In this document: positions 11,816-39,953 of the stretch, in pieces
Layout: each line of letters starts with the position of its first letter
Position numbering within the stretch: position 1 is the stretch's first letter
DNA from: an uncultured Acidobacteriota bacterium
Lineage (GTDB): Bacteria > Acidobacteriota > Vicinamibacteria > Vicinamibacterales > CAVVIG01
Length of the DNA stretch: 64,000 nt
Direction of reading: 5' to 3'
NCBI GenBank assembly: GCA_963761615.1
Contig: CAVXGU010000004.1
Location: 223,537-287,536 of the forward strand
The notes under the pieces: model-generated
Databases searched by the model: none
What the model was told of the DNA's origin: nothing
Seen by the model: the letters and a program-made list of their open reading frames with translations, nothing else
Translations under genes and position numbers: made by a program

Positions 11816-11828
11816 GGTGGGGCCCCGT

Positions 11829-22312: not shown

Positions 22313-22316
<4 letters not shown>
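21312..22316 (-). CDS. dihydroorotate dehydrogenase-like protein (PFOR-associated)
   Basis: 334 aa starting at MTLTTEYLGMTLSNPLVVGASPLS. TIM-barrel DHOD-like pattern (IASLNG, VKLSP, NRF). Its start overlaps the nifJ stop by 4 nt. Confidence 0.85.
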
Positions 22317-25948
<3,632 letters not shown>

Positions 25949-26113
25949 GCGCGTCGTGGGACTCGCGCGGACATCCTACACCCGGCCGACGGGGCGATCC
26001 ACGCGCGTCCGCCCGCGCGTGGTAGCATCGAGCGACTGTCGACCGCAGATCACGCTGGAAGGACAGCGAGGCGCCGGCACGACGTCCTGACGAGGTTGCG
26101 GCTGGAGCCTGTG

Positions 26114-26560
26114 ATGCCGCGCGAAGAGCGGATGCGCCCGGACGTGCTGAAGGAATACCGGGGCGAGCACATCGTCGTCCTGTGGGAGCCCGCGTACTGC
26201 ATCCATGCCGCGAAGTGCCTGGACGCCGAGCCGGAGGTATTCGACGTCACGCGGCGACCGTGGATTCTCGTGGAGGCGGCGAGCGCCGACCGCATCGCCC
26301 AGGCCGTGATGCAGTGTCCGACCGGCGCCCTGCACGTTCGGCGCGTCGATGGCGGCGAGCAGGAACCCGTTCCAGAGCACACGACGGTCGAGCGGCAGCC
26401 GGACGGGCCGCTGTATCTGCGTGGCCGCCTGAAGTTCGTCGGCGCCGGAGGGGAGCCGATCCGCGAAGATACGCGCGCCGCGGTGTGTCGCTGCGGACGG
26501 ACGTCGAACGGGCCGTTTTGCGACGGGACGCACCGCAAGATCGGATTCCGGGCGCCCTGA
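26114..26560 (+). CDS. Fe-S protein: divergent 4Fe-4S mono-cluster domain fused to a CDGSH domain
   Basis: 148 aa. N-terminal half has C.H...C......F.......W.......I...V..CP.GAL. C-terminus CRCGRTSNGPFCDGTH matches the CDGSH [2Fe-2S] signature. ATG verified at 26114. Confidence 0.8.
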   Translation: MPREERMRPDVLKEYRGEHIVVLWEPAYCIHAAKCLDAEPEVFDVTRRPWILVEAASADRIAQAVMQCPTGALHVRRVDGGEQEPVPEHTTVERQPDGPLYLRGRLKFVGAGGEPIREDTRAAVCRCGRTSNGPFCDGTHRKIGFRAP

Positions 26561-26599
26561 GGGTGCCTCCGGTGTCAGTATTCGGGTGGAACGCTCCGG

Positions 26600-29500
26600 A
26601 TGCCTGAGCCGCCGTCGCCGCTCGACGCCGCCTCCTCGCCGCTCTGCTCGCTCGGCCTGTATGCGGGACGCGTCGCGGGGGCCGTCGTCGGACGGACCCG
26701 CGAGCTCGCCGCGGTCGACGAGGAGCTCGCCGCCGCCGAGCGCGGCCTCTCCTGCCTGACGCTCGAGGGCGAGCCCGGCATCGGCAAGACGCGCCTTCTG
26801 CTCGCCGTCGAATCGATGGCCCGCACGCACGGCTTCGTGTCGATGGCGGTCACGGCCGACGAGGAGATCCGCGGGCCGTTCCTCCTCGCACGCAGCATCT
26901 TTGCCTGCCCCGGGATCGCCGAGGGGCTGTCGGCCGACGCCGCGCAGGCGCTCGAACGGATCGCACACGTCCTGGCGAACCCCGAGGACCCCGGCCTGGC
27001 GAGTCTCCCGCCCGATCGGAAGCTCCTGCGCATCTTCGACCTGGCGGGAGCGGCGTTCCGTCTGATCGCCGCCGAGCATCCGGTCCTGTTGATCATCGAC
27101 GATCTGCAGTGGGTCGACGGAGACAGTCTGCGACTGCTGCGCTACGTGGCGCGCGCGGACGGCGCCAGCCGGATTCTGCTGGTGGTCGCGATCAGGCCGT
27201 CGGAGGTGGCGTTCGTCAACGAGGCGGTGACGCTACTCGCCGACCTCGAGCGCATGGGCCTCGTCCGGCGGCTGAAGCTCAAGCGCTTCACGCAGGCGCA
27301 GTCGGTGGAATTCCTGCAGCAGGCCTTCGGCGGACCGCTCGAGCCGGCCAGCGTCGCCGTCATGCACGCCCAGGCGGAGGGCCTGCCGTTCGTGCTGTCC
27401 GAACAGGCGCACGTCTATCGCGAGAACGGCCTCATCCGGCAGGTCGACGGGATCTGGCGCCTGGCGCCCAACGCGGAGCGCCTGCTGCCGTCGGCCGTGC
27501 GAACGCTCATCGATCGGCGGGCCGTGCACCTCCCCGACGCCGCGAGAGCGATCCTCGCCGAGGCGGGCGTCCTCGGACGCACATTCAGCCTCCGCGACCT
27601 CGCGGACCTCCGGCTTCGCCTCGGCGAAGGAGGCGACGCCGACGCGCTCGCCGACGCGCTCCAGCCGGCCGTCGACGCCGGGTTGCTGGTCGAGCAGCCG
27701 CGCGAATCGCCCGCCGACTACAGCTTCACCCACGATCAGATCCGGGAGACCCTGGTCATCGGACTGCCGACGACTCGGCGGCGGGCGGTTCACGGTGCGA
27801 TCGTGGACATGCTGGTGGGCGACGGCGGCGAGCCGCCGAAAGGAAGCCTCTCGCTGCTCAGCCAGCACGCCCTCCTGGCGGGGCGAACCGCCTCGTGCCT
27901 GCGCTTCTCGATCGACGCGGCGCGCGCGGCGATCGAGGCCAAGGCCCCGGAGGAGGTGCTGAGCCTGGTTCGCCGGGCGCTGCCCGTGGCATCGGCTCCA
28001 CGGGACCGGGTGGCGCTGCTCTGCCTGCAGGACGACGCCCTGCAGATGCTCCGGCGCCAGGATCAACGGCTCGAGATCCTGTCGGAGCTCGGTGCGCTCG
28101 CCGACGCGCTCGCCGATGCCCACCTCGGGTTCGAGGTCCGGCTGCGCCGCGCGGGAGCGCTCCGCCTCTCGCACGACGAGGACGGCGCGGCCGAGATCTC
28201 GCGTCAGGTCCGGGAGTCGGCGTCGGCCCAGGGCGACGAGGCCGTGGAGCTGGCGGCGTGCATCGAGCTCGGTCAGGATCTGCTCCGGGTCGAGATGGGG
28301 GCGGGCTTCGCCCAGACGCCGACCGAGTCGGATCTGGACGGCGCCGAGGCGGCCTATCAGCGCGCCCTGGTGCTCGCCGAGCGCCGGCAGGACGATCCCA
28401 TGCTCGCCGCGACCAGTCGCGAGCTCGGCGTCATCGCGCTCTCGCGCCTTCGACAGTGGTTCGTGGGCGCGGTCGCGGCCGGGGAGCACATTTCGGTCAT
28501 GCGCCGGGTGGTGGCGGGTGAACCGCTGGACGACGTCCTGCGCACGCTGCCGGTCGGTCCGGAGCTGATGGCCAGAGCCAACGGCCACTTCGAGCGGGCG
28601 CTCGAGATCTTCGAGCGTCTGGGCGACCGCCAGGGCGCGATGGCCACCGTCATCGCCATGGCCCTGACGAGCTGGGCGCCGGAGGTTCACGTCACGGGCT
28701 CGGCCGCGCGCGTCGAGGACATCCGGCGCCTCGTGGAAAAGCTCAAGTCGTTCACCAAGGAGAGCGACCGCGCGCTCGCCGAGGCCCAGATGCTGTTCGG
28801 ATCCCACGTCTACGCGTTCGCCAAGGGGATTCCGGACGTCGCCCTGGCGAAGGGTGACGAAGCGTTCCGCGCGGCGCGCGCGGCCGGCGAGCGGGCAATC
28901 GAATTCGCGGCCGCCGGAGGCATGGCCCGCACGAACGCGCAGCTCGACCGGAAAGAAGAAGCCCGCCGATGGCTGGATCTGGCGGCGACGGTCGCCGCGG
29001 CCGCACCAACGCGGACGCGGGCCCGGCGCCTCGAGTTCTGGCGGGGCCTCGTCCTCGGGCGGGCCGGCGACGCCGACGGCGTGCAGCAGCATCTGACTCA
29101 CGCCGCGCGCATGGCCCTGGACGACGAGCGCCCCGCGGAACGATGCGAGGCGCTCGCCTGGCTGGCCTCGGAATCGGCGCGGCTCGGACGCGATCGGAAA
29201 GACGACGCCCTCCTCGCCGTCGCGGAGCAAGCCGCGCGGACGGTCCTGCAGGACGCGGCGGCGCTCCCCGGCCACGCCCCGTGGCGGCCGCAGGCCCACG
29301 CGGCCCTGGCCCGGGTGGCGCTGGTGAGGGGGGAGACCGACGCGGCGGCGGAAGCCGGCAGGCGCGCCCTCGCCGAGCTGGACACCGCGATGCGAGAGGA
29401 CATGAACCTGGACGTCCTGCTTCCGGCCGCCGAGGCGGTTCTCGTGGCGGGATCGGACGCGGAAGCCCGGGCGCTGCAGGAGCGTCTGCAGCTGCTGCTC

Positions 29501-29824
29501 AGGCTCCACGCCCAGCGAATCCTGAGCGACGACGTGCGGGGTGACTGGTTCAGGTTCGGGATCGGACGCGAGCTGGCCCTCCTCGCAGGGCCCGTCGTCG
29601 ACCCGGGCACCGACAGCCGGGAGCAGAAACAGACCGACCTTTCCGAGGAGGACGTCCAGCTCCTTCGGCTCGTCGTCGAAGGACGCACCAACAAGGAGAT
29701 CGCCAGGGAGATTGGCGCTCCGGAGCGGGTCGTGTCCCTGCGGCTGGCGGAGTTGTTCGTCAGAATCGGCGCGTCGTCCCGCGCGGGCGCGACGGTGACG
29801 GCGATCGCAGGAGGGATGGTCTAG
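26600..29824 (+). CDS. STAND/AAA ATPase - TPR-like - LuxR-type HTH transcriptional regulator
   Basis: 1074 aa. Walker A GEPGIGKT, Walker B LLIIDDLQWVD, a long helical repeat region, and a C-terminal LuxR HTH (LSEEDVQLLRLVVEGRTNKEIAREIG...V). Confidence 0.85.
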   Translation: MPEPPSPLDAASSPLCSLGLYAGRVAGAVVGRTRELAAVDEELAAAERGLSCLTLEGEPGIGKTRLLLAVESMARTHGFVSMAVTADEEIRGPFLLARSIFACPGIAEGLSADAAQALERIAHVLANPEDPGLASLPPDRKLLRIFDLAGAAFRLIAAEHPVLLIIDDLQWVDGDSLRLLRYVARADGASRILLVVAIRPSEVAFVNEAVTLLADLERMGLVRRLKLKRFTQAQSVEFLQQAFGGPLEPASVAVMHAQAEGLPFVLSEQAHVYRENGLIRQVDGIWRLAPNAERLLPSAVRTLIDRRAVHLPDAARAILAEAGVLGRTFSLRDLADLRLRLGEGGDADALADALQPAVDAGLLVEQPRESPADYSFTHDQIRETLVIGLPTTRRRAVHGAIVDMLVGDGGEPPKGSLSLLSQHALLAGRTASCLRFSIDAARAAIEAKAPEEVLSLVRRALPVASAPRDRVALLCLQDDALQMLRRQDQRLEILSELGALADALADAHLGFEVRLRRAGALRLSHDEDGAAEISRQVRESASAQGDEAVELAACIELGQDLLRVEMGAGFAQTPTESDLDGAEAAYQRALVLAERRQDDPMLAATSRELGVIALSRLRQWFVGAVAAGEHISVMRRVVAGEPLDDVLRTLPVGPELMARANGHFERALEIFERLGDRQGAMATVIAMALTSWAPEVHVTGSAARVEDIRRLVEKLKSFTKESDRALAEAQMLFGSHVYAFAKGIPDVALAKGDEAFRAARAAGERAIEFAAAGGMARTNAQLDRKEEARRWLDLAATVAAAAPTRTRARRLEFWRGLVLGRAGDADGVQQHLTHAARMALDDERPAERCEALAWLASESARLGRDRKDDALLAVAEQAARTVLQDAAALPGHAPWRPQAHAALARVALVRGETDAAAEAGRRALAELDTAMREDMNLDVLLPAAEAVLVAGSDAEARALQERLQLLLRLHAQRILSDDVRGDWFRFGIGRELALLAGPVVDPGTDSREQKQTDLSEEDVQLLRLVVEGRTNKEIAREIGAPERVVSLRLAELFVRIGASSRAGATVTAIAGGMV

Positions 29825-29826
29825 CC

Positions 29827-30561
29827 GTGCTTCAGGTTCGCATCGAACGCTCCCGCTGCATCGGGGCGGGCAACTGCATCACCATCGCGCCGACCGCGTT
29901 CGACTGGCTCGAGGGCGAGTTCTTCAAGGTGGCGCTCGTCGATGCCACGAGCGTCGACGAGGAGATCCTCAGGGAAGCCGCCCTGTCCTGTCCGACCCAG
30001 GCCATCGTGCTGGAGGACGTCGAAGAGCTGCTGCCCTGGCAGCTCCGCGCCAGGCAGACGGTCGGATCCGTCCGGGTCGCCGAGACGTTCATGTTCACGG
30101 ACATCGTGAAGTCGACCAACCTGGTCGAGGCGATCGGCGACGAGGCCTGGGACGCACTGCTGCGGTGGCACAACGAGACGCTGCGCGCCGTCTTCGTCGC
30201 GCACGACGGGACCGAGGTCGTCTCCACCGGCGATGGGTTCTTCGTCGAGTTCAAGACGGCCGATGCCGCGCTCGCCTGCGCCGTCGCCCTCCAGCGGGAG
30301 CTGGCGGAGCACCGGCGGGCCCAGGGCTTCTCGCCGCAGGTTCGCATCGGGATCCACACGGCCGATGCCACCAGAGTGGGGAGCAACTTCTCCGGGAAAG
30401 GCGTTCACGAAGCGGCGCGAATCGCGGCGCTGGCGGAGGGCGGCGAGATCCTCGCCAGCCGCCAGTCGATGACGCCGCGATTTACCGCCTCCGAGCCGCG
30501 CCAGGTCACCTTGAAAGGCATCGCCGACCCGGTGGAGGTCGTGACGGTCCAGTGGAAGTGA
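29827..30561 (+). CDS. ferredoxin domain fused to a class III nucleotidyl cyclase homology domain
   Basis: GTG start 2 nt after the LuxR stop. Residues 1-65 carry C11-x2-A-x2-C17...C-P (CIGAGNC...SCPTQAI), a single-cluster ferredoxin motif. Residues 85-244 carry the cyclase motifs FMFTDIVKST, TGDGFFVEF, RIGIHT and GVHEAARIA. Confidence 0.8.
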   Translation: MLQVRIERSRCIGAGNCITIAPTAFDWLEGEFFKVALVDATSVDEEILREAALSCPTQAIVLEDVEELLPWQLRARQTVGSVRVAETFMFTDIVKSTNLVEAIGDEAWDALLRWHNETLRAVFVAHDGTEVVSTGDGFFVEFKTADAALACAVALQRELAEHRRAQGFSPQVRIGIHTADATRVGSNFSGKGVHEAARIAALAEGGEILASRQSMTPRFTASEPRQVTLKGIADPVEVVTVQWK

Positions 30562-31280
30562 GTCTGGACCTCCTGTTCCTCGGCACGGGCAACGCGACGT
30601 CCCATGACGGACGGGCGACCAGCGGCTTCGTCGTCGACGGCCGGTATCTGTTCGACGCAGGGGCGGCGACGCTCCAGCAGCTGAAGAAGGCACGCGTGGA
30701 TCCGGCCGGCCTGCAGGCGGTCCTGATCACCCACTTCCACGCCGATCACTTCTTCGGGCTGCCGTTCCTGCTCCTGGAGTACTGGATCGCCGGCCGCGAG
30801 GAGGACCTGCAGATCGTCGGCCCGCCGGGCATCGAAGCCAGGACCGAGCACCTGCTGGATCTCGCCTTCCCCGGGCTGCCCCGGCGCGCGCGGGAGTACC
30901 GCCGGCGCTACACCGAGGTGGCCGATGGCGCGAGCGGCGAGGTGGCGGGGCTGCCGTTCGAGGCCTTCGAGGTCGAGCACGTGTCATCGCTGCGCTGCTT
31001 CGCCTATCGCGCCCGGATCGGCGGGCGCACGCTCGCGTACTCGGGCGATTCCGTGATGTGTCGCGGGTTGCTGAACGTGGTCGCCGGCGCCGACGTGGTG
31101 GTGCTCAACTGCTCGCAGCGCGGCGACCCGGTGCATCTCGCGGTCGAAGACGTCCCGGCCGTGGTCGTGCACGCACGCGCCGAGGCAAGAACGATTCTGA
31201 GCCACGTCGACGGGCCCATCGCCGCCGCGCGCGACGCGCGTGCGCTGGTGGCCTCCGATCTGGACCGTCTTCGCGTGTAG
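30558..31280 (+). CDS. MBL-fold metallo-hydrolase
   Basis: The GTG at 30558 overlaps the cyclase stop (GTGA). Pattern LLFLGTGNA...DAG then ITHFHADH (HxHxDH). 240 aa. Confidence 0.75.
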   Translation: MSLDLLFLGTGNATSHDGRATSGFVVDGRYLFDAGAATLQQLKKARVDPAGLQAVLITHFHADHFFGLPFLLLEYWIAGREEDLQIVGPPGIEARTEHLLDLAFPGLPRRAREYRRRYTEVADGASGEVAGLPFEAFEVEHVSSLRCFAYRARIGGRTLAYSGDSVMCRGLLNVVAGADVVVLNCSQRGDPVHLAVEDVPAVVVHARAEARTILSHVDGPIAAARDARALVASDLDRLRV

Positions 31281-31332
31281 AGCGACTCTGGCGGCAGGTG
31301 CGCCGATGCACGTATCCTAGTCGCGATGCAGC

Positions 31333-31415
31333 GCGGACCTTCAGGTCCGCTAGCGGACCTGGTGGTGTAGTGCGGACCTTCAGGTCCGCAACGAACGGCA
31401 GGCCTGAAGGCCTGC
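31333..31415. repeat. cluster of three REP-like hairpins
   Basis: GCGGACC-TTCA-GGTCCGC occurs at 31333..31350 and 31372..31389. GCAGGCC-TGAA-GGCCTGC occurs at 31398..31415. All have perfect 7-bp stems and 4-nt loops, and all lie in the intergenic gap after the MBL stop. Confidence 0.85.
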
Positions 31416-31486
31416 GCTACGTACGTCAATCGAAGCGCATCCGATTCGAAGCCGGTCCGGCGGCAACGGTCGGCCAGGGAGGGATC

Positions 31487-31783
31487 ATGGCGTTCGTCGG
31501 GAAGGTCAGTCAGGTCGCGGCCGGTCAGCTGGTGGGAATCGAGGTCGACGGAAAGCCCGTGGCGGTGGCCAACGTGGACGGACGTCTGTTCGCGATCGGC
31601 GACCGCTGCACGCATCGCGGATGCTCGCTCTCGGAAGGGGAGCTGTCCGGCACGACCGTGACGTGCCCGTGCCACGGCGGTCAGTTCGACGTGACGAGCG
31701 GCGAGGTCGTCGGCGGGCCTCCCCGGGAGTCGGTCCCGTCGTACGGCGTGCAGGTCGTCGGCGACGAGTTCCACATCGGCTGA
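31487..31783 (+). CDS. Rieske [2Fe-2S] domain protein
   Basis: 98 aa with CTHRGC...CPCHGG (CxH...CxxH). ATG verified at 31487. Confidence 0.85.
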   Translation: MAFVGKVSQVAAGQLVGIEVDGKPVAVANVDGRLFAIGDRCTHRGCSLSEGELSGTTVTCPCHGGQFDVTSGEVVGGPPRESVPSYGVQVVGDEFHIG

Positions 31784-31795
31784 CACGAGGCCTCA

Positions 31796-32224
31796 ATGTC
31801 GATTGCAGACGTGCTCGCCGACGTGCCGCTGTTCGCAGGGCTCGATGCCAAGGCGATCGAGTCCCTGGCGGGCTTCACCTTCCGGAAGACGTTCGAGCCC
31901 GGGGACCTGATCGTCGAGGAAGGCCGCACGGGGAACGGCATGTTCATCGTCCTCTCCGGGAGCGCCGAAGTCGTCAAGGGCCTCGGGACGCCGCAGCCGC
32001 GCGTCGTCGCGACGCTCGGCGCCGGCGAGCCGATCGGCGAGATGGCGCTCCTGGGCGAGTGGCCGCGCACCGCGTCGGTGCGGGCGCTCGAAACGACGGA
32101 ATGCGTCGGCATCGACCGGTGGATCTTCCTCGACTATCTGGAGAAGGAGCCGAAGCTCGCGCTTCGGCTGCTCCAGATCCTGGCGCTGCGGCTGGCGGAG
32201 ACGGCGGAGCGGCTGGCCGAGTAG
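31796..32224 (+). CDS. stand-alone cyclic nucleotide-binding domain protein
   Basis: 142 aa with the pattern PLFAGLD......L......F..G..I..EG....MFIVLSG and the phosphate-binding cassette GEPIGEMALLGEWPRTASVRA. No output domain. Confidence 0.85.
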   Translation: MSIADVLADVPLFAGLDAKAIESLAGFTFRKTFEPGDLIVEEGRTGNGMFIVLSGSAEVVKGLGTPQPRVVATLGAGEPIGEMALLGEWPRTASVRALETTECVGIDRWIFLDYLEKEPKLALRLLQILALRLAETAERLAE

Positions 32225-32228
32225 GCGC

Positions 32229-33488
32229 TTACGTCGCCGCGAGGCTCTTGGCGATCCCCGCAAGGGCGGTCCTGACGGACGCGAGCACCGCCGGCGCTCG
32301 ATCGCGAGCCTGGAGGAAGCCGCAGTACGCCCCGAGCTCTCCCAGCCGTTCGCGAAAGACCGTCCGGGCCGCGTCCCCGTGCGTCGGGATCGTCGCGCCC
32401 CGCGACAGCCGGAAGCTGATCCCGGCCGTCTTGCCCGGGTGCGACGGCCCGGCGGGCGACTTCGTCAAGGCGTCGGCCAGCGGCGCGACGATGTCCATCA
32501 TCAGCGACTCGGCGGCTCGGGACAGCCGCTGCAACTGCTCGTTCGACTCCTCGCCGTGCACGAAGAGCCGCCCCAGGACCTGCGTCATCAGCTCGTAGCA
32601 CGCGTCGGCGAGGTTGCTCAGCTCGGCCGTGTCCGGATCGTCGATGAAGTTGAGATCCTCGGTGTCGGTCTTGTCGCTCGGCGGCAGGGCGTAGGGGTTG
32701 GCCAGGACCGGTCGCGCCGGCTGGAATCCGGGATCCTCGGCCAGGGCGTCCTTGCACTCCCGCCAGATCGTGACGAACTTGCTGTAGTGCGAGTCGGGCG
32801 TGTCGCGGCTCGCGCCTTCCCCCTGGACGACGATCACGTTGATCGCCTGCTGCGCCGACGCGAGATCGGTGACCGGCGTCAGCTCGGGCAGGCTTTCGAA
32901 GTGGGCGGGCGCCGCCGTCTGCATGTCGGGACGGCCGATGAAGAGCCCGCGCTCGCCGTACTTCTGCGCCAGATAGACGAAGCCGTCCTCGATGCCCCGG
33001 TAGAGGCGGCCCTGGGTGTGGTATTCGCGCTCGGTCGCGAAGATGTCGCTGAGCTGCGGTCGAACGGCGGCGGGGAGACTGCGGGCGACCCTGCCGTCCG
33101 CGCCGACGAGATCGTCGGGCTCCTCGATGGCGATGAACTGCTCCATCGTGTCGAGACTGAACGGCGCCAGTCGTAGGTGAAACCCACCGCGCCGATCCAT
33201 CCGGATCGGGAAGTTCGGGCGCCGGAGGTGGGGTGCCCCGCCGATCGCCGTCAGGAGATTGCACACGGCGCCCAGATGGAGCATCTCCTGGACGGCGACG
33301 CCGCGCAGCAGGCGGCTCCAGCGCCGGATCTTGCGCAGCTGCGCGTCCGTGATCCCTTCGTCCGTGCTGCTCTTCAGGCTGAAGGCCGTGAACAGGTAGC
33401 AGCACATGACGCCGTGCTCGATTTCCGCCGCCTCCGTCAGGAGGTAGATCAGCTGCGCGCGGTTCTCGATGCGGAGGGTCGGCTCCAT
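32229..33488 (-). CDS. ferritin-like domain protein
   Basis: 419 aa starting at MEPTLRIENRAQLIYLLTEAAEIEHGVMCCYLF...QEMLHL, a ferritin-like four-helix motif pattern. ATG verified at 33486..33488. Confidence 0.7.
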   Translation of the reverse strand: MEPTLRIENRAQLIYLLTEAAEIEHGVMCCYLFTAFSLKSSTDEGITDAQLRKIRRWSRLLRGVAVQEMLHLGAVCNLLTAIGGAPHLRRPNFPIRMDRRGGFHLRLAPFSLDTMEQFIAIEEPDDLVGADGRVARSLPAAVRPQLSDIFATEREYHTQGRLYRGIEDGFVYLAQKYGERGLFIGRPDMQTAAPAHFESLPELTPVTDLASAQQAINVIVVQGEGASRDTPDSHYSKFVTIWRECKDALAEDPGFQPARPVLANPYALPPSDKTDTEDLNFIDDPDTAELSNLADACYELMTQVLGRLFVHGEESNEQLQRLSRAAESLMMDIVAPLADALTKSPAGPSHPGKTAGISFRLSRGATIPTHGDAARTVFRERLGELGAYCGFLQARDRAPAVLASVRTALAGIAKSLAAT

Positions 33489-33582
33489 CAGGGCACCTAG
33501 GATACACGCGCCGGTCGGCGGATGGATGCCCTCCCGAACGGCCGGCACGTCCCCCGACCGGGGGCGTGCCGGCGGTGCCGGC

Positions 33583-34062
33583 CTAGCCGATTGGCCGAGG
33601 CGCCGGGCTTTCGGCCGGCGCGCTCGTCGCCGCCTCCTGTGGGTAGAGCGGCGCGACGCCGTCCGAGTGATTGGGCAGGTACCACGCAGCGATCCGTGCG
33701 GGAGCGCCGGCGGATGTCCGCTCGAGCGTCATCTGCTCCTTGTCGCTCGACACGGGCCTCTGCACCGGCGTGGTGAAGAACGTCGCGTACACCGTGGAGC
33801 GATCCTGGCTCAGGACGCGCACGATCGAGGGCTCCACCATCTGGAACACGTAAGTCCCCGGCTTCAGTCCGACGCCCGGAATCTCGATCGGGCCACTGAA
33901 GAACATGAAGTGGTCCGACGGCGATCCGCGGACGACGCCGGCATGTCCTGTGACGGTGACAGTGAACTCCATCGGCTGCTGAGCTTGTGCCCATGCCGGA
34001 TGGGCTCCGCTCAGCAGGAACACCGCGGCGATTGCGACTCCTGCGCCGATCAGCTTCTTCAT
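33583..34062 (-). CDS. secreted hypothetical protein
   Basis: 159 aa with signal peptide MKKLIGAGVAIAAVFLLSGAHPAWAQ. ATG verified at 34060..34062. Confidence 0.6.
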   Translation of the reverse strand: MKKLIGAGVAIAAVFLLSGAHPAWAQAQQPMEFTVTVTGHAGVVRGSPSDHFMFFSGPIEIPGVGLKPGTYVFQMVEPSIVRVLSQDRSTVYATFFTTPVQRPVSSDKEQMTLERTSAGAPARIAAWYLPNHSDGVAPLYPQEAATSAPAESPAPRPIG

Positions 34063-34127: not shown

Positions 34128-35552
34128 TTACAGACCGCGGCGCGTCTGGAACGGTCGCCCCATGCGGACGTCGCGCTGTCGCAGGATGCGATCGCTCGCC
34201 GCGACGCGCGAGTCGACGAGCGGACGTGGCGCGAGGCCGAAGCCGACGAGTGCCAGGACGAGCGCTGCGAAGGTCCACGCTTCTCGCCGCGTCAGACCGA
34301 ATCGCGGACCCGCGTCCGGCTCGCGGCGGCCGCAGAAGAGCGCGAAGTACATCCGGACGATGGTCAGCCCGGTCAGCGCCGACGCCGCCACGACGGCGAA
34401 TCCCATCACCGGAAAGGCGTCGACCGCGCCGTTCACGAGCAGTTCCTGACCGACGAAGCCGAGCGTGCCGGGAAAGCCGGTGCACGCGAGTCCGAGGCAG
34501 AGGAAGCTCACCGCCAGGAGCGGCATGCGCTCGTAGCCGCCGTGATAGGACGTCAGATCGAGCCGGCCCCGGCGCGCTTCGAGCACGAGGATGACGCGCG
34601 CGAGGCCGGCGAACCCGAGCCCCGCCGACAGCCAGACCAGCAGTCCACCCGCCAGGGCGCTCGTGCTCGTGCAGTCGAGGCCCGCCATCACCAGGGCCGA
34701 CTGGCTCATGAACAGGTACCCGCACGCGCGCCGGGCGCTCGACTGGACCAGGGCGAGCGCCGCGCCGTAGACGGCTGTTCCGAGCGCGAGCACCGCGATG
34801 ACGCGCAGCATCTCCCCGGACGCGCGCGGGACGATGAGCACGACGGTGATGTACGCACCCACCTGTGGCGCGTTGAAGAGGATGGCGGGCCCGAGCCGGC
34901 CGCGGTCGAAGACTTCCGGGACCCATGCGTGGAACGGCACGATCCCCTTGCGCACGAGCGCCGCCGCCACGATCAGCCACATGCCCGTCGTCGCGACCGC
35001 CACGTTCCCGGCGAACGGTCCGACGAACAGTGCGACGCCGGCGCCGAGCAGCAGGGTGGAGGCACCGAGATAGGCCGCGGCGATCCGGCGTTGATCGCGA
35101 TGCGCCGGGTCGCCGAGGGCGTCGAGCAGCGTCCACACGGACGCCGCCGACAGGAGGAAGAGCGCCACGGCGCTCTCGGTGAGAAAGGATGCGAGCGTGA
35201 GCAGCGTGGCGAGGGCCGCCCGGCGGAGGCCGCGGCGATCCAGCGATGCCCGCGGCGTCACCGCGACGGTGAGCAGCCAGAGGGCCGCGGCGAGGGGCAG
35301 CAGGGCCGCCGACAGCGTGTCGACACGCAGAATCGACTCTCCGCCCGGTACCCAGCTGAGGCGCGACGTGCGGAGGGACAGGTCGTGGAGCCCGGGCAAG
35401 ACGGCGACGACGACCGTGGCCGCGAGCATGAGGCCCGCGGCGCCGACCGCCAGGCGTCGAAGGCGCTCGACCTCTCGGTCGACGAACGAGAGACCGATGA
35501 CCAGGGCGGGCAGCGCCGCGGCGAGCGCGAGCCAGGGGCCGGGGTTACTCAT
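34128..35552 (-). CDS. proton-conducting membrane transporter subunit (NuoN/NuoM-like)
   Basis: 474 aa starting at MSNPGPWLAL. Multi-TM with the PFHAWVPEV motif typical of the complex I antiporter-like family. Its start overlaps the upstream gene stop by 8 nt. Confidence 0.8.
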   Translation of the reverse strand: MSNPGPWLALAAALPALVIGLSFVDREVERLRRLAVGAAGLMLAATVVVAVLPGLHDLSLRTSRLSWVPGGESILRVDTLSAALLPLAAALWLLTVAVTPRASLDRRGLRRAALATLLTLASFLTESAVALFLLSAASVWTLLDALGDPAHRDQRRIAAAYLGASTLLLGAGVALFVGPFAGNVAVATTGMWLIVAAALVRKGIVPFHAWVPEVFDRGRLGPAILFNAPQVGAYITVVLIVPRASGEMLRVIAVLALGTAVYGAALALVQSSARRACGYLFMSQSALVMAGLDCTSTSALAGGLLVWLSAGLGFAGLARVILVLEARRGRLDLTSYHGGYERMPLLAVSFLCLGLACTGFPGTLGFVGQELLVNGAVDAFPVMGFAVVAASALTGLTIVRMYFALFCGRREPDAGPRFGLTRREAWTFAALVLALVGFGLAPRPLVDSRVAASDRILRQRDVRMGRPFQTRRGL

Positions 35553-36900
35553 CGCGATCGTCGCCTCCGGGCGCGGACGCCGGCCACTCCATCGGCACGA
35601 GGGCCTGGCAGAGCCATCCATCGAGGCGGCTCAGCCCGCGCGCCGCCGTCGTGAACGGTCCGACGATGACGCGGTCGAGCCACGCGTCGAGGAAGCCACG
35701 CTCCAGCGCGGCGAGAAACAGACGGTGGCGCAGCCGCTCCGGGATCAGACGGATCACCGGGCCTTCCCGCTCCTGGCGGTGACCGATGGCATCTTCCATT
35801 CCGTGCAGGTCGTGCAGGACGTTCGGAGCGCTCAGGAACTGCAGCAGCCGGAACGAGGCGTGCCCGACCAGATGGACGAACGCCACCACGTACCATCCGA
35901 TCGCGATCTCCACGACGATCAAGGCGACCTGGGTGAGGGAGGCATAGGCGAGCGACGACTTGACATCGCTCTGCACGCGGGTGGCGAGGCCGGCGAAGAC
36001 GGCCGTCGCCAGTCCCAGGGCGCCGGCCAGCACGCGGGCGGCCGGCGCCTGCTCCAGCAGGGGCGCCGCGCGCAGCAGCAGGAAGCACCCGGCGTGCACG
36101 GAGAGAGAGCCGTAGTAGACGGCGCTCGACGGAGTCGGGCCCTCCATCGCGCGCGGCAGCCACCCCGAGAACGGCAGCAGCGCGCTCTTGCCGGCCACGG
36201 CCACGATGAGGAGCACCGCGATGACCGTGGCATGCGCGCCGGTCAGGGCCAGCGCCTGGCCGGGCTTCGCGCCGCCGAACAGCAGCGAGAGGCTGTCGCT
36301 GCCGGCGAGGTGCCGCAGGAGGACCGCCGCCGCCAGCATCGCGGCGTCGCTCACGCGGTACACCGACAGCACCCGCAGCGCGTTCGACACCGGCGCCGGC
36401 CGCTCGTGGAAGAACGCCACGAGCAGCGCGGAGCTCAGGCCGACGAGCTCCCATCCGACGAGCAGCACCTCGACGTTCCCCGCCAGGGCGACGAGGAGCA
36501 TCCCGGTCACGAACATCGCCAGCAGCACGAAGTACCGGTTGTAGCCGGCCTCCCGGTGCAGGTACCGGTTCGAGAACGCCGAGACGACCCCCGCGATCAC
36601 GGCACAGAGCGCGGCGAAGCCGAGGGACACGCGATCGATCGAGAGCTCGATCGCGATGCCGCCGGCGTGACCCGTCGACCAGGCGCCGTACGACACGACC
36701 TGCGAGCCGCGGCCGGACACCCCGTGCACCACGAGCGCCGCGAGCAGGGACGCGCACGCGAGCGTCATGCTGGCGCCGGCCAACCTGCCGGTCCACCGCT
36801 CGGGGAGCGGCCGGTTGACGAGCGAGGCGCCGCCGAGCAGGAGGAACAGCGCTGCCGGCGACCCGACCCCGACGGTCACCAGCGTTGCGATCGGACTCAT
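35545..36900 (-). CDS. dabB: NuoL/MnhA-like proton-conducting subunit, DabB-type
   Basis: 451 aa starting at MSPIATLV. Motifs include GWELVGLSS and GKSALLPFSGWLPRAMEGPTPSSA. ATGA overlap with the upstream DUF2309 gene. Confidence 0.8.
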   Translation of the reverse strand: MSPIATLVTVGVGSPAALFLLLGGASLVNRPLPERWTGRLAGASMTLACASLLAALVVHGVSGRGSQVVSYGAWSTGHAGGIAIELSIDRVSLGFAALCAVIAGVVSAFSNRYLHREAGYNRYFVLLAMFVTGMLLVALAGNVEVLLVGWELVGLSSALLVAFFHERPAPVSNALRVLSVYRVSDAAMLAAAVLLRHLAGSDSLSLLFGGAKPGQALALTGAHATVIAVLLIVAVAGKSALLPFSGWLPRAMEGPTPSSAVYYGSLSVHAGCFLLLRAAPLLEQAPAARVLAGALGLATAVFAGLATRVQSDVKSSLAYASLTQVALIVVEIAIGWYVVAFVHLVGHASFRLLQFLSAPNVLHDLHGMEDAIGHRQEREGPVIRLIPERLRHRLFLAALERGFLDAWLDRVIVGPFTTAARGLSRLDGWLCQALVPMEWPASAPGGDDRDE

Positions 36901-39900
36901 CGCGCCCGTGCCGGCGAATCGGGCGGTGCGCCCGTGCGAGTCGGGTTCGACGCCGGCGCTGGAACGATGGCCACCGGAGCGAGGAATCCGCGCTTGCCCT
37001 GGTACCACGCGGCCGAATCGCCGACGACCGACGTGAGGGGACGTTCCGGCCTTCGGAGGACGAACCCCGAGGGGCCAAGTTCCCACAGCGCGCCCGAGTG
37101 GGGATCGAGACACGCCAGCCAGATCCAGCGGTTGCGCACCAGCCGATCGAGCGTCGCGTTCTCGCCGACGACGCGACCGACGCGATCGGGCGTGCCTTCC
37201 ACGACGATGGCGAGACGCGTGGGCTCGTGGATCTCGACCATCTGCCAGGGGAGCCCCGTGCGCAAGTCGCTCTGCGCGCCGTCCATCACGCCGAGGAGCG
37301 ACGTGACGTTGTGCGGCAGCTTCGTGCCGCAGCCGTAGCCGGATGGATCGACGTAGCTGAAGTAGTACTCCAGGTTGATCCCGGCCACGACCGGCACGAC
37401 CGCGGCCATCACGCGGGCCAGGACCGCGCCGTCGCCGTCCCGCGTCGGGTCGTACGACGACAGGAACGCGCGACGATCCAGGAACAGCCCGCGCGTTCGG
37501 GCACGCCGGCCGATGATGCAGAACGCGTTGGTGGCGTGGCCGTACTCCGGGCGCGGCTGCGCCAGGTCCGCGGCACGCCCCTGGACGTGAGCGAGCGCCG
37601 CGGCGGGCGGGTACCAGCGCGGCACCGCGTCGAAGCGGCGGCACCGCTCGTGGGCCTCGCGCCGCCTCGCGGTGTCGACGGCACGTGTCGCGCGCGCGAA
37701 GGCCTCGCGCCAGCGCGCGGGCACCAGGTCGTCGTCGTAATACGTCACCGTGTTGTCGCAGGTGTTGCGCTGGGCGCCGACGAACCAAGTGCCGTCGCCG
37801 ATCGCCACGCCCTCCGCCGCCAGCGCCTGGCGCACGCGTGGATCGTTGGCCATCTGGGCGAACGCGCGGGCGTTCGGCCCGCCGCGCCCGCCGCCGCAGG
37901 CGCCGCAGTCGTGGGCTGATTCGTGCGGGTTGTTCAGGCTCACCGATCCGTGTCCGAACACCAGCACGAGCGGGGAGAGGCGGCCGGCGATCCCGATGTC
38001 CTCCAGAACGCGACGCACGATGCCGGCCATTTCCCGGACGGTGAAGCCGGAGTAGCTGCCGATCGGCGGCCGGCGCGTGTCGCGGCTCAACTGCAGGCGG
38101 GTTCGCGGGGCAGGAAGCGGCGGCGTCCGCACGACGCTCCACCGGGAGGAGAGCCACGGGAACACGACGCGCAGGACCAGCGGGACGAGCGAGAGCCAGC
38201 CGAACAGCGTCATCAACAGCGCGCCGCGAACGGGCAGACGGCTCCCGGCGTGCACGTTGTAGCCGAGGAACCCGGCGGCCCGCCGGTGCAGACGCCTCGA
38301 GCGCCCCGGCAGCGCCTCCGGGGCTTCCTCGACTTCGGCGACGTAGTGCTCCGGGCGGATCGTCACCGGGCACAGCGGCCGCGGATGCGCGTCCGACGCG
38401 CCCTGGTGGTACATCGCGACGTTGAAGAAGCCCGGCGCGCCGAAGGTCTCGCACTGCGGCTCGACTTCCTCCAGATGGCGCCGGAAGGACTCCTCCCGCT
38501 CGTCGATGCAGAACACCGCCTGGAAGGCCGGCGTGGCGTCGACGGGCCGTGGCGCGTGATGCGCGAGGGCGTCGTACACCCGATGCCGAATCGTTCGCTC
38601 GAAGGCCTGATGCAGGGTCCGCCGGCAGAGGGCGTCGACCTCACCGAGCTCGGACTCGATCTCGGCCACCTGGCCCGCCGTCCACTGCGTCACGATCGAG
38701 GCGTCGACGCCGCAGAGCTGGGCGAGGTGAAAGAGCGGCCACGCCCGGTCGGAGGGCGTCGGCGACGCCGGACCGGGAAGTTCGTCACGGAGCCATGGAC
38801 GGAGCCCGGCCAGCGGGCCGTGAAAGGACACCTGCCGCGCCGCGTCGGCGAGCGCGGCGCGCTCGAACAGCAGGCGGACGGCGAGATATCCGCGGAGCGT
38901 GACCGTGAGATCGAGCGTCGGCACGCGGTCGGGCCGCTCTTCGATCTGGCGGACGATGCCCGCCCAGCCCCGCAGCGCCAGGAGCTCGCTGCCGAGATAG
39001 GCGTCGGCCTCGTCTTCCGCGACGCCGAGGTCGGCCAGGGAGTTCGCGAGCGAGTCGAGCGCGCCGCGTCCCGCGGCGTGGTCGTCGGCGACGAGGCGCG
39101 GCAGCGTCGCGGCCCATCGACCGCAGTGCGCGGCGAGCCCGGTGCGGTAAAGCTCCAGGAAGCAGCCGTGGATGCCGAGATGCCGGTCGGGCATCGTCCA
39201 CGGTGCCAGCCCCTGGTCGAGGTAACCCGCGAGGAAGCGGATGAGCGGCGGGTGGATCCAGGCGTCGGTGTCGAGGCGGCGCGTCGCCAGGAGCCAGTCG
39301 CGATGCCGGACCGGGGCGGCGCCGGGCGCGGCGGGCGGTGGGGTGCGGGCACGACCGGCCGCGTCGAGGCACGCACGCCAGAGGCGGCGCACGGCGTGCC
39401 GCTCGTCTCCGGGGAGTTCGGATGGATCGATCGCGTCGGTCAGGGCCGCCCTGGCGGAGGCCGGGAGATCCGGACGGAACCGCGACAGCGCGGCGGTCTC
39501 GTCGAGGATCCACTGGAGCTCCCGTCCGGTTGCGGCCGGGATGCCGTGCAGCACGACGGCACGCCAGAGATCGAAGCGGGTCCCGACGCCGGCGACGTCC
39601 TCCCGTCCCCCCGGGCCGAGCGCCTCCTCGAGGAGGGCGTCCACGTCCTCGACCAGAATGCGGCCCGAGGCGAGCTTGTCGCGGTATCGCCCCTCGGCGA
39701 GGAACGGCTCGCGCCCGAGGGTGATGGCGGCGTCGGCCACGGCCTCCTCGAAGGGCAGGTGCTCGAAGGCGTGCAGCGTGTTGTGATGGATGAAGATGCT
39801 GATCGGCCCCTGCGCCGGCAGCCGGTGGGCCAGACGGTCGATGACCCGGGCGATCGGGTGGTCGGACGGGCCCGCATCCTGCGGGCCGGCGTGGTCGGGC

Positions 39901-39902: not shown

Positions 39903-39917
39903 CGGCGAACGTGCAAG

Positions 39918-39935
39918 TATAGCAATATTGCTATA
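39918..39935. promoter_or_regulatory. perfect 18-bp palindrome TATAGCAATATTGCTATA in the dabA/arsR-like divergent intergenic region (candidate operator)
   Basis: The palindrome was checked by hand. It lies in a 51-bp AT-rich gap within an otherwise roughly 70% GC sequence, and TATACT/TATATT -10-like hexamers overlap it on both strands. Confidence 0.6.
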
Positions 39936-39953
39936 TTGCGCTATCATGCGGTC

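Follow-up and report, generated by a model that had tools for sequence, protein, structure and literature searches.

A gene cluster in the window (the whole 64,000-nucleotide stretch of DNA from an uncultured Acidobacteriota bacterium that was analysed here) appears to encode two linked units, a reading to which we give a probability of roughly 55%. The first, unit A, would be a redox-linked writer made of a STAND-LuxR regulator and a ferredoxin-fused cyclase (Fdx-cyclase). In the second, unit B, a cyclic nucleotide-binding receptor (CNB protein) would act with an electron-transfer set. An MBL-fold hydrolase would serve as the eraser. A first-pass annotation had proposed a circuit of writer, reader, eraser and transcriptional output, and this putative circuit is supported by synteny. 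Every gene, junction and motif named there was found again using ORF calls, GC3 periodicity, and Pfam and NCBIfam profiles.

Unit A lies on the forward strand. The STAND-LuxR protein (1074 aa, 26600-29824) has an AAA_16 NTPase domain (65.6 bits) with Walker A GEPGIGKT and Walker B LLIIDD, a long helical region, and a C-terminal LuxR/GerE HTH (27.4 bits). MalT/LAL/AfsR STAND factors likewise combine an N-terminal Walker A/B NTPase, a long helical sensor region and a DNA-binding output. This class is activated by nucleotide-dependent oligomerisation, and we know of no characterised member reported with an obligately coupled cyclase partner. The Fdx-cyclase (244 aa, 29827-30561) is indeed a separate gene with a fused ferredoxin, as its product carries both Fer4_13 (Pfam, 34.6 bits) and Guanylate_cyc (Pfam, 31.6 bits). 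With the last base of the STAND-LuxR TAG at 29824 and the cyclase GTG starting at 29827, the gap is the 2 nt that had been described.

The pair occurs in at least 416 species-level genomes of uncultured soil bacteria, and all relatives are metagenome or MAG sequences. Synteny beyond this genome, on which the first-pass annotation had staked its proposal, is confirmed. Our comparison set comprised about 170 related loci, with pair adjacency scored in 83; STAND-LuxR orthologues (45-75% identity) lie directly upstream of Fdx-cyclase in 82 of the 83, and the sole non-adjacent locus (L044) has just 621 bp of upstream sequence. The distance from STAND-LuxR stop to cyclase start is 25 nt or less in 78 of the 82 loci (mode 2 nt, with several overlaps), and the STAND-LuxR start codon and N-terminus are kept in relatives. 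The pair locus looks single-copy, with housekeeping and redox genes nearby (SthA, FeS proteins); no other neighbours were found conserved across pair loci. Very probably, the pair acts as a single functional unit. Calls of LuxR and Fdx-cyclase as a single chain (L084, P0256) were rejected as gene-calling or assembly artefacts.

By sequence comparison, the gene pair is the domain order of single-chain AAA-TPR-LuxR-cyclase proteins, split, plus a three-cysteine ferredoxin. Residues 80-244 of Fdx-cyclase are 50-65% identical to the C-terminal cyclase of AAA_16-(TPR)-GerE-cyclase proteins (P0253, P0296, P0361), with similar kinship to AAA-TPR-cyclase, SARP-AAA-cyclase, TPR-cyclase and protoglobin-cyclase proteins. 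The window STAND-LuxR aligns collinearly to the N-terminal ~970 aa of those fused AAA_16-TPR-GerE-cyclase proteins at an identity of only 24-27%, so "split version" describes an architecture, not a recent fission. P0253, P0296 and P0361 share the pair's domain order, and their cyclase domains are 56-61% identical to that of Fdx-cyclase, but they are one polypeptide, lack the ferredoxin domain and have no published function. The cyclase had been described as normally fused to the N-terminus of actinobacterial AAA-TPR-LuxR proteins; this holds for Rv0386, but the fused relatives relevant to the pair carry it C-terminal to the LuxR HTH. The mycobacterial proteins Rv0386, Rv1358 and Rv2488c likewise join a class III cyclase, a STAND-type NTPase, a helical/TPR region and a LuxR HTH, with the cyclase N-terminal on the same chain. 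Here, in contrast, it is a separate coupled gene after the LuxR HTH, carries a ferredoxin, and belongs to the Rv1900c/Ma1120-like subfamily, unlike theirs. A passage in PMC3466318, citing Castro et al. 2005, describes Rv0386 as an active cyclase with non-canonical substrate-selecting residues.

The CNB protein of unit B (142 aa, 31796-32224, forward strand; Pfam 70.6 bits) is a stand-alone cNMP_binding domain and a candidate reader. The phosphate-binding cassette GEMALLGEWPRTASV is present as annotated, and its Gly, Glu and Arg (G81, E82, R91) do not vary among 21 homologues; conservation is high throughout the family, and the ligand-contact residues are invariant. The gene starts 12 nt downstream of, and in a common reading frame with, the gene for a Rieske [2Fe-2S] ferredoxin-type protein (98 aa, 31487-31783, forward strand; Pfam Rieske 83.9 bits; motif CTHRGC...CPCHG). 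In 12 related loci the CNB gene is immediately preceded by a Rieske gene, and there are true single-chain Rieske-CNB fusions (P0461, P0463, P0504).

The receptor's most constant neighbour is a gene that the first-pass annotation did not list. It encodes a ferritin-like protein (439 aa, 32229-33548, reverse strand, convergent on the CNB gene; PF12902 144 bits) with two ExxH motifs, EIEH and EMLH, for which no significant PDB sequence match was found. A ferritin-like gene is adjacent and convergent to every CNB orthologue with flanking sequence available (L001, L004-L006, L009, L012, L014, L084, L085, L169-L173), except in L008, where the two are about 2 kb apart. The tightest partners of the CNB receptor are the Rieske protein and this ferritin-like, di-iron-type protein. 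Upstream of unit A is a candidate electron carrier, a Fer4_19+zf-CDGSH protein (148 aa, 26114-26560, forward strand; PF06902 70 bits, PF09360 52 bits) with the motif CRCGRTSNGPFCDGTH. In L004 a 69% identical orthologue takes the equivalent position, in L169-L173 the CNB/ferritin-like genes have CDGSH/Fer4_19 genes or fusions next to them, and in L171 the ferritin-like protein is fused to CDGSH-Fer4_19-CDGSH. The occurrence of CDGSH in proteins together with Ferritin-like and Rieske domains is already in the literature (PMC5859297).

The CNB gene, the convergent ferritin-like gene and FeS carriers (Rieske and/or CDGSH-Fer4_19) recur jointly, often with MBL, and adjoin either the pair or a cyclase-STAND regulator of unrelated type; their order, orientation and fusions vary. 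The order LuxR, Fdx-cyclase, MBL, Rieske, CNB, ferritin-like recurs in L004, L005, L084-L086, L090 and L169/L170. In 9 of about 12 distinct loci where Fdx-cyclase identity is at least 68%, the Rieske-CNB-ferritin-like trio sits no more than 8 kb from the pair, and its appearance there in four arrangements argues for selection on proximity. When CNB homologues were sampled independently of the cyclase, a cyclase-bearing STAND/TPR regulator was adjacent in three of four look-ups. These homologues (60-68% identity) sit beside unit A in L169/L170, and beside a different, cyclase-NTPase-HTH_77-TPR regulator that is split in L171 and fused in L172. At most Actinomycetota-labelled loci the pair stands alone; about 65 of them lack CNB, MBL and ferritin-like orthologues within 8 kb of it. 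In L173, unit B is present but has no cyclase gene closer than 9 kb; thus the units can occur separately. Still, we find it fairly likely that units A and B are connected via a cyclic nucleotide.

The MBL-fold hydrolase (240 aa, 30558-31280, forward strand; Pfam Lactamase_B_2 75 bits) is short, ElaC/YhfI/Apyc1-like, and a candidate cNMP phosphodiesterase. The reported GTGA overlap is there, with the cyclase TGA at 30559-30561 and the MBL GTG at 30558; with an alternative GTG start at 30552, the overlap would be 10 nt. At the metal site, H59, H61, D63, H64, H141, D164 and H216 are invariant. Apyc1 and Bacillus YhfI are similar in size (about 240-250 aa), fold (TM-scores ~0.72-0.78) and HxHxDH binuclear-metal site, and the RNase Z arm is missing here. 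However, the sequence scores fall far under the Apyc1 and YhfI family thresholds and the sequence is nearer the RNase Z N-terminal half. The protein lies below all curated-family cutoffs (PF23023 19.7 vs 50, NF041851 55 vs 400, RNase Z 93 vs 293); the NF041851 and PF23023 matches are weak but full-length, and precomputed PF23023 matches are carried by the whole MBL family. Its AF2 model (pLDDT 88) has Foldseek matches to RNase Z, YhfI, 1ZKP and Apyc1, a search that does not discriminate RNase Z-like, YhfI-like and Apyc1-like enzymes. Orthologues of at least 65% identity are always within the module, overlapping or almost abutting the cyclase gene. In the next clade (53-57% identity), the MBL gene and a Crp/Fnr gene form a divergent pair at all informative loci (L087, L094, L096, L097 and one Logan contig). 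The hydrolase's place in the module, as first annotated, is borne out by the recurring gene order, but MBL is present with only one subclade of the pair.

It is unlikely that only the pair signals. Under this alternative, the CDGSH, MBL, Rieske, CNB and ferritin-like proteins (plus an FNR-like reductase in relatives) form a small multicomponent di-iron oxidase or oxygenase pathway. A LAL-type pathway activator would control that pathway or simply often lie next to it, MBL would be a hydrolase of metabolism, and the CNB protein would answer general cellular cAMP and not Fdx-cyclase. Soluble di-iron monooxygenases comprise a reductase, a Rieske/FeS carrier, a ferritin-fold hydroxylase and a small effector protein. 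The layout of unit B is alike, with an FNR-like reductase that recurs nearby (L005, L084, L085, L169/170, L173), a Rieske ferredoxin, an ExxH ferritin-like protein and a small protein. Yet the ferritin-like protein is of PF12902, not of a known hydroxylase family, the small protein is a cNMP-binding domain in place of the oxygenase effector, and CDGSH/Fer4_19 carriers take part. The absence of unit B from most pair loci, its occurrence in L173 away from any nearby cyclase, and the failure of MBL to reach any cNMP-PDE family threshold all favour a metabolic pathway. However, no further pathway enzymes are conserved at the loci, the MBL gene overlaps the cyclase gene and not the redox genes, and the MBL sister clade pairs with Crp/Fnr genes. 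Unit B also lies beside two unrelated kinds of cyclase-bearing STAND regulator, which is hard to explain unless the cyclase matters.

Turning to the writer of the proposed two-unit system, it is plausible that Fdx-cyclase is catalytically competent, a prediction based on residue conservation and on the precedent of Rv1900c and Ma1120, its PDB matches (E 2e-15 and 7e-24, respectively). Across 25 homologues C11, C17, C55, D92, D136, H194 and R198 are invariant. The substrate-specifying positions hold Val132 and Asn187 in place of Lys and Asp, and His194 replaces the canonical Asn, so the sequence predicts neither the nucleotide made nor robust turnover. Rv1900c (LipJ) has the same His at the canonical Asn position, aligned with His194, and a non-Lys residue at the first specificity position; from the work of Sinha et al. 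in 2005 it is said to be an active cyclase. Ma1120 keeps the Lys/Asp pair where Fdx-cyclase has Val/Asn. The partner domain is lipase-like in Rv1900c, absent in Ma1120 and a ferredoxin here. Ma1120, the nearest solved relative, is an active adenylyl cyclase (PMC4215837).

We regard it as quite improbable that the cyclase domain is a pseudo-enzyme with little or no catalysis that lets STAND-LuxR sense nucleotides or dimerise, the dimerisation being made redox-dependent by the ferredoxin, with no messenger made. The substitution of all three canonical residues, the modest Guanylate_cyc score, and the near-constant attachment of this cyclase homology domain subfamily to transcription-factor scaffolds are in line with such a role, as is the lack of a receptor or PDE candidate nearby at most loci. 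Against it, relatives across phyla, at 62-93% overall identity, keep Arg198, the LKG-motif Lys/Arg and both metal-binding aspartates (Asp92 and Asp136), and Rv1900c is reportedly active despite an equal Asn-to-His change. The recurrent link to an intact-cassette CNB receptor and an Apyc1-like hydrolase also argues that a nucleotide is made.

The N-terminal single-cluster ferredoxin of Fdx-cyclase has Cys11, Cys17 and Cys55 in the pattern CxxAxxC...CP, with no fourth Cys across 25 homologues, and is joined to the class III cyclase homology domain by an invariant LPWQ linker. Its AF2 model is unreliable (pLDDT <50). Tentatively, this domain may be a redox or cluster-state sensor. Sinorhizobium meliloti CyaC and related proteobacterial class IIIb cyclases also have a ferredoxin module directly before the class III cyclase (PMC4821796). 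[quoted passage not shown] While CyaC is a membrane-anchored class IIIb enzyme with di-heme helices and has the Crp-like Clr and TetR-like CycR as partners, Fdx-cyclase is soluble, 244 aa long, and coupled to STAND-LuxR.

A Pycsar/Avs-type anti-phage defence cluster (STAND sensor, cyclase, CNB effector, MBL nuclease) is disfavoured as very improbable. Avs and Pycsar systems are built from STAND NTPases, class III-like cyclases and CNB-effector proteins, the CNB protein is weakly like the PycTIR CNB domain (44 bits) and the cyclase weakly like PycC (E about 2e-3), and MBL resembles Apyc1. But the STAND, MBL, Rieske, CDGSH and ferritin-like proteins match no PADLOC model, PycC matches are at noise level, the CNB protein lacks any toxic effector domain, a LuxR HTH is the output of the STAND protein, and the pair is conserved at 62-93% identity and single-copy-looking in more than 400 species, neither patchy in distribution nor set in islands as defence genes typically are.

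The REP cluster of the first-pass annotation is real. Three REP-like palindromes occupy the MBL-Rieske intergenic region (31327-31420), with GCGGACCTTCAGGTCCGC at 31333 and 31372 and a variant at 31398. A further copy of the palindrome lies at 42046 and variants lie at 42073 and 3046, for a total of 8 matches against 0.24 expected. In relatives this intergenic region is short (~90-125 nt) and palindrome-free, so the cluster is likely an insertion and not a conserved part of the module. The divergent PFOR gene (22313-25948, reverse strand; TIGR02176 1767 bits) is present as annotated, but it drops out as a module member, as no relative places PFOR there; the one further PFOR homologue, in L061, is about 4 kb downstream of the pair. 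Its adjacency to the cluster is incidental.

We propose that STAND-LuxR and Fdx-cyclase, the products of translationally coupled genes, form a complex equivalent to the single-chain AAA-TPR-LuxR-cyclase proteins. ATP-dependent STAND oligomerisation would position the LuxR DNA-binding domains and bring the cyclase domains together, as cyclase active sites form only in dimers. In front of the cyclase, the [3Fe-4S]-type ferredoxin with its three cysteines would place nucleotide cyclisation under the control of cluster or redox state. Information would then flow to the CNB receptor, which would read the presumed cyclic nucleotide product and modulate the Rieske/CDGSH-Fer4_19/ferritin-like redox system, to which relatives add an FNR-like reductase. 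Since Rieske-CNB fusions occur in some species, the receptor probably binds the Rieske protein. Breakdown of the nucleotide would fall to the MBL hydrolase, whose gene is co-translated with that of the cyclase. The pair, the receptor, the FeS carriers, the di-iron-type protein and the hydrolase point to an undescribed link between a second messenger and electron flow.

The window is about 70% G+C, which crowds raw ORF lists, and genes were singled out by codon-position GC and HMM searches. These searches recovered every gene named in the first-pass annotation. Beginning after a pyruvate:ferredoxin oxidoreductase gene (PFOR, 22313-25948, minus strand), the plus strand carries genes for a Fer4_19+CDGSH protein (26114-26560), a 1074-aa AAA_16...GerE protein (STAND-LuxR, 26600-29824), a 244-aa Fer4_13+Guanylate_cyc protein (Fdx-cyclase, 29827-30561), a 240-aa MBL-fold protein (30558-31280), a 98-aa Rieske protein (31487-31783) and a 142-aa protein made only of a cNMP-binding domain (CNB, 31796-32224). 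Inspection of the DNA junctions agreed with the 2-nt gap first described between the LuxR and cyclase genes, and with the GTGA overlap between the cyclase and MBL genes. The original gene set did leave out a convergent gene directly downstream of CNB, which encodes a 439-aa ferritin-like protein (PF12902; 32229-33548, minus strand). A promoter and terminator scan of 25800-33700 found no element, and no conserved operator motif was found upstream of the LuxR gene among relatives.

By genome comparison, the conserved core of this locus is the STAND-LuxR/Fdx-cyclase gene pair. A scan with one genome per species found relatives of Fdx-cyclase in 416 genomes. All relatives are metagenomic, with taxonomy taken from the MAG labels in their records; the best 80 of the 416 were inspected, and these are all MAGs labelled mostly Actinomycetota (Thermoleophilia, Gaiellaceae, Nitriliruptorales and others) or Chloroflexota. 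The closest genome match within the best 80 (locus L004, 81% identity) is labelled Acidobacteriota. The family is uniform, with nearly all members 244 aa long, the top 120 database clusters at least 69% identical, and conservation of 62-93% identity across phyla. Synteny beyond this genome, named as a first-pass check, was borne out by tblastn for the STAND-LuxR and cyclase genes: a full-length STAND-LuxR orthologue (45-75% identity) lies directly upstream of Fdx-cyclase in 82 of 83 loci, and in the single exception the upstream sequence is only 621 bp long. In 78 of the 82 loci at most 25 nt separate the stop from the start within the pair; a distance of 2 nt is the most common, and several pairs overlap. 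Among relatives, the LuxR protein keeps its start and N-terminus. When the ORFs of all neighbours were clustered, no gene besides the pair was conserved over the whole locus set. The window also encodes a tripartite RND efflux system (AcrB-like, HlyD-like and outer-membrane factor OEP; 8729-14276, minus strand), whose OEP suggests a diderm host and so agrees better with the Acidobacteriota label of L004 than with Chloroflexota. On that assignment the module, at 62-81% identity, would be present in three phyla or more, a hint of horizontal spread.

Other kinds of gene also recur near the pair. The gene directly after Fdx-cyclase encodes SthA, the Si-specific NAD(P)+ transhydrogenase (NF003585, 514-545 bits, above cutoff), in eight loci (L007 4988-6397, L012 5507-6907, L030, L031, L038, L047 8726-10147, L071 and L083), which come from Chloroflexota- as well as Actinomycetota-labelled MAGs. 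SthA is thus a second redox-themed neighbour of Fdx-cyclase, and one database protein, P0242, looks like a fusion of Fdx-cyclase with a Pyr_redox_2 fragment. Nine loci, all Actinomycetota-labelled (L017, L021, L026, L028, L031, L034, L038, L062 and L063), carry within a few kb of the pair a zinc-ribbon, canonical cyclase, AAA and TPR protein of ~1070-1170 aa with its cyclase at the N-terminus. This proximity may be chance in cyclase-rich genomes, or may reflect a second layer of the same signalling.

The second unit of the module centers on the CNB protein. Its cNMP-binding domain (PF00027) scores 70.6 bits against a cutoff of 27.5, and G81, E82, R91 and A93 of the phosphate-binding cassette are invariant among 21 homologues, making CNB a candidate cNMP receptor with predicted ligand binding. 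The Rieske protein (83.9 bits vs 20.3) has the ligand motif CTHRGC...CPCHG, and genuine single-chain Rieske-CNB fusions with their own linkers exist in the databases (P0461, P0463 and P0504). In the ferritin-like protein ExxH occurs twice, as EIEH and EMLH, a feature typical of di-iron carboxylate proteins; a sequence comparison with the PDB gave no significant match for it. CDGSH domains in proteins with Fer4_19, Ferritin-like and Rieske domains have been noted before, without a function (PMC5859297).

The full gene order of the cluster in the window (LuxR, Fdx-cyclase, MBL, Rieske, CNB, ferritin-like) is kept elsewhere, in L004, L005, L084-L086, L090 and L169/L170. Among the closest relatives, with Fdx-cyclase identity of at least 68%, the Rieske-CNB-ferritin-like trio lies downstream of the pair in L001, L004 and L005, upstream in L006, and inverted in L008, L009 and L014; it is partly seen in L007 and L012, and missing in L002, L003/L010 and L011. 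A second sampling used CNB homologues picked independently of the cyclase (L169-L173). In L169/L170 (CNB 68%), genes for Fer4_19 and CDGSH proteins come after the pair, and behind them MBL, Rieske, CNB, ferritin-like, an FNR-like reductase and a PAS-cyclase. In L171 (CNB 62%), an Apyc1/PDEase_II-like MBL gene is divergent from CNB, and a ferritin-like-CDGSH-Fer4_19-CDGSH fusion precedes separate genes for a canonical cyclase and an HTH_77-TPR regulator. These last two are a single 873-aa protein in L172 (CNB 60%), divergent from CDGSH-Fer4_19-CDGSH, CNB and ferritin-like genes. L173 (CNB 64%) has CDGSH-Fer4_19-CDGSH, Rieske, CNB, ferritin-like and reductase genes together, with no cyclase within 9 kb of them. 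Because CDGSH/Fer4_19 recurs beside the CNB and ferritin-like genes in L169-L173, the upstream CDGSH/4Fe-4S protein of the first-pass annotation is, on this comparative evidence, part of the recurrent set. The strongest rival to a connected system holds that the redox genes form a di-iron enzyme cluster independent of the pair, under a LAL-type activator; the absence of the trio beside some pairs and the cyclase-free neighborhood of L173 speak for it, and the cyclase genes found around CNB in L169-L172 speak against it.

An FNR-like reductase (~240 aa, NAD_binding_1) recurs with the module, either just upstream of LuxR or after the ferritin-like gene (L005 3919-4623, L084 2341-3036, L085 2030-2737, L169/L170 ~9980-10711, L173 10977-11699). 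The window has no copy, and here and in L004 the slot upstream of the LuxR gene is taken by the CDGSH-Fer4_19 gene. Several relatives have a conserved non-coding stretch of ~70 nt (TCGAAGCTCGTATCCTA...GACCGTTCC...) ahead of the Rieske gene (L085 7750-7871, L089, L090, L091, L005 9460-9577), and a related TCGAAGC direct repeat occurs in the window at 31430-31459. The stretch could be an operator or a leader. Rfam gave no match on the Rieske leader, and the sequence upstream of the Rieske gene is common only to closely related loci, so its conservation may be only phylogenetic.

The STAND-LuxR protein has an AAA_16 domain (65.6 bits) with both Walker A (GEPGIGKT) and Walker B (LLIIDD), and a GerE HTH at its C-terminus (residues 1014-1067; 27.4 bits vs cutoff 23.5). 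The ~800-aa region between NTPase and HTH has no Pfam TPR match; relatives show TPR_12. Over residues 27-453 the protein matches TIGR03903 in its NTPase-arm part.

In Fdx-cyclase, the Guanylate_cyc domain (PF00211) scores 31.6 bits against a cutoff of 21.9, and among solved structures it is closest to Mycobacterium avium Ma1120 (E 7e-24) and M. tuberculosis Rv1900c/LipJ (E 2e-15). Across 25 homologues the metal-binding aspartates D92 (FTDIV) and D136 (GDGF) do not vary, Arg198 is invariant as well, and the LKG lysine/arginine is conserved. Alignment to Ma1120 and Rv1900c finds neither the canonical adenylyl Lys/Asp nor a guanylyl Glu/Cys-type specificity pair: Val132 aligns with a Lys of Ma1120 and Asn187 with the Asp of Ma1120 and Rv1900c, making the nucleotide specificity unpredictable. 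An invariant His194, aligned with a His of Rv1900c, replaces the canonical Asn of the Asn/Arg transition-state pair. Substitutions of this kind could mean that the cyclase domain is non-catalytic, the second rival to be considered. Rv1900c is active despite its own Asn and His substitutions. Ma1120 is an active adenylyl cyclase (PMC4215837). The activity of these two proteins and the conserved Asp, Arg and LKG residues make activity of Fdx-cyclase plausible, although its product cannot be named.

The ferredoxin domain (Fer4_13, 34.6 bits vs 24.5) has exactly three invariant cysteines, C11-x5-C17...C55-P56, and never a fourth; at the middle motif position Ala, Ser or Val takes the place of Cys throughout. 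We take this pattern to be that of a [3Fe-4S]-type single-cluster ferredoxin. Cys151, also invariant in the family, was considered as a fourth cluster ligand and rejected, because Rv1900c and Ma1120 carry the same Cys without a ferredoxin domain. An invariant LPWQ linker joins the two domains. In the AF2 model the ferredoxin half stays under pLDDT 50, which makes the model unusable for judging domain packing.

HMMER, run exhaustively against 1.8 billion cluster representatives and with architectures assigned by Pfam scan, places residues 80-244 of Fdx-cyclase at 50-65% identity to C-terminal domains of much longer proteins. These longer proteins have AAA_16-(TPR)-GerE-cyclase (P0253, P0296, P0361), AAA_16-TPR-cyclase, SARP-AAA_16-cyclase, SARP-cyclase, TPR-cyclase, TPR-GerE-cyclase and Protoglobin-cyclase architectures. 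In the window STAND-LuxR comes first and the cyclase second, so the gene order matches the domain order of the single-chain relatives; over their first ~970 residues these align collinearly with the STAND protein, at an identity of only 24-27%. The first-pass comparison with regulators bearing an N-terminal cyclase was correct as far as the mycobacterial Rv0386 type is concerned (PMC3466318), but the closest architecture has the cyclase at the C-terminus. Two apparent fusions were rejected. A public 1319-aa gene call (L084 3051-7010; AAA_16, Fer4 and cyclase) reads through a TAG in the DNA and is a gene-calling artefact; other gene calls in L084 also look over-extended. P0256 resembled a LuxR-Fdx-cyclase fusion, and the STAND gene of its locus is in pieces, probably from assembly indels. 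Neither protein thus counts as a Rosetta-stone fusion.

The MBL hydrolase has a complete binuclear-metal motif set (H59, H61, D63, H64, H141, D164 and H216, all invariant). Its model (pLDDT 88) resembles YhfI, 1ZKP and Apyc1 in Foldseek (TMt 0.70-0.78), and the size matches too. Profile matches fall below cutoff for PF23023 (Apyc1; 19.7 bits, cutoff 50), for NF041851 (55.2 bits, cutoff 400, though the alignment is full-length, 6-217 of 240) and for RNase Z TIGR02651 (93 bits, cutoff 293, profile positions 2-146 of 302 only). By sequence the protein is nearest to the N-terminal half of RNase Z without the arm region, and its alignment to 2CBN skips chain residues ~151-201. Relatives of ElaC, YhfI, Apyc1 and PhnP score alike, so the fold search is not decisive between RNase Z and cNMP phosphodiesterase. 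Orthologues with at least 65% identity always follow Fdx-cyclase, often overlapping it; the next clade (53-57%) forms a divergent pair with a Crp/Fnr gene wherever sequence suffices, and more distant relatives have unrelated gene contexts. Metal site, fold and genomic contexts make a putative role as cNMP phosphodiesterase reasonable. Some MBL relatives at 44-46% (L130, L134, L143, L160) lie directly upstream of a ~650-aa protein that is 29-35% identical to PFOR and 2-oxoacid:ferredoxin oxidoreductase-like, a link independent of the PFOR in the window.

That PFOR, placed next to the module in the first-pass annotation, does not belong to it, as no relative has PFOR at that position. The only other homologue (L061 12880-14664, 67% identity) comes from an Actinomycetes-labelled MAG, where it sits ~4 kb further downstream than the pair, probably a coincidence. 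The REP cluster described between the MBL and Rieske genes is real and consists of intergenic REP-like palindromes (GCGGACCTTCAGGTCCGC and variants; 31333-31350, 31372-31389, 31398-31415). The family is dispersed in the window (also 42046-42063, 42073-42090 and 3046-3063), with 8 matches against 0.24 expected. Relatives lack palindromes between these two genes, so the cluster looks like an insertion into the module here. Just beyond the ferritin-like gene lie a DabB-like (Proton_antipo_M) gene (34128-35621) and a DabA gene (PF10070, 755 bits; 36897-40361), both on the minus strand. This inorganic-carbon uptake pair is not conserved beside the module elsewhere. Over the whole window, Rfam gave nothing beyond a single tRNA gene (16816-16902, plus strand), the sole match at the gathering threshold.

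The best-supported proposal for how these parts may work together, drawn throughout from comparative evidence, is as follows. The STAND-LuxR/Fdx-cyclase complex would couple ATP-dependent oligomerisation, and probably cluster state as well, to transcription and cyclic-nucleotide synthesis. The receptor on the FeS/di-iron electron-transfer set would read the nucleotide, and the MBL protein would reset the signal. In a more far-reaching form, an FeS-cluster cyclase would be docked on a STAND factor, and a cNMP receptor would be a subunit of a Rieske/CDGSH-to-di-iron chain; cNMP would directly gate protein-to-protein electron flow, and the cyclase cluster would sample that flow. This would close a redox feedback loop at the post-translational level, with transcription as a parallel output, and the loop would be widespread among uncultured soil bacteria (Chloroflexota- and Actinomycetota-labelled MAGs). 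We put the probability of this far-reaching reading at roughly one in five. The nearest functional precedent is CyaC of S. meliloti, a redox-responsive cyclase whose class has a ferredoxin module (PMC4821796) and which forms a complex with transcription factors (PMC10463352). However, CyaC is membrane-bound and its partners are unrelated to those seen here. Phage defence of the Pycsar or Avs kind is disfavoured, as PADLOC gave only domain-level matches (CNB to PycTIR, 44 bits; cyclase to PycC, E about 2e-3), none for the STAND or MBL proteins and no meaningful system match, and the distribution is conserved and non-island.

All parts belong to known families. No paper in the library searched gives a description of a soluble ferredoxin-cyclase, of its obligate STAND-LuxR partner, or of the association of CNB with Rieske, CDGSH and ferritin-like proteins. 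Actinobacterial genomes are rich in class III cyclases that are fused to STAND regulators. For the coupling of such cyclases to the transcription factor, the family described here is a tractable system: the cyclase is small (244 aa) and strongly conserved, the system is naturally split in two proteins, and the FeS cluster is a candidate input. Cyclase-factor coupling is therefore testable with two purifiable proteins. The linkage, and sometimes fusion, of CNB to Rieske/CDGSH and ferritin-like proteins suggests cNMP control of electron transfer rather than of transcription or channels, for which we know of no characterised bacterial precedent. It also offers a functional context for PF12902 ferritin-like and bacterial CDGSH-Fer4_19 proteins, to our knowledge the first, in lineages that are abundant uncultured soil bacteria.
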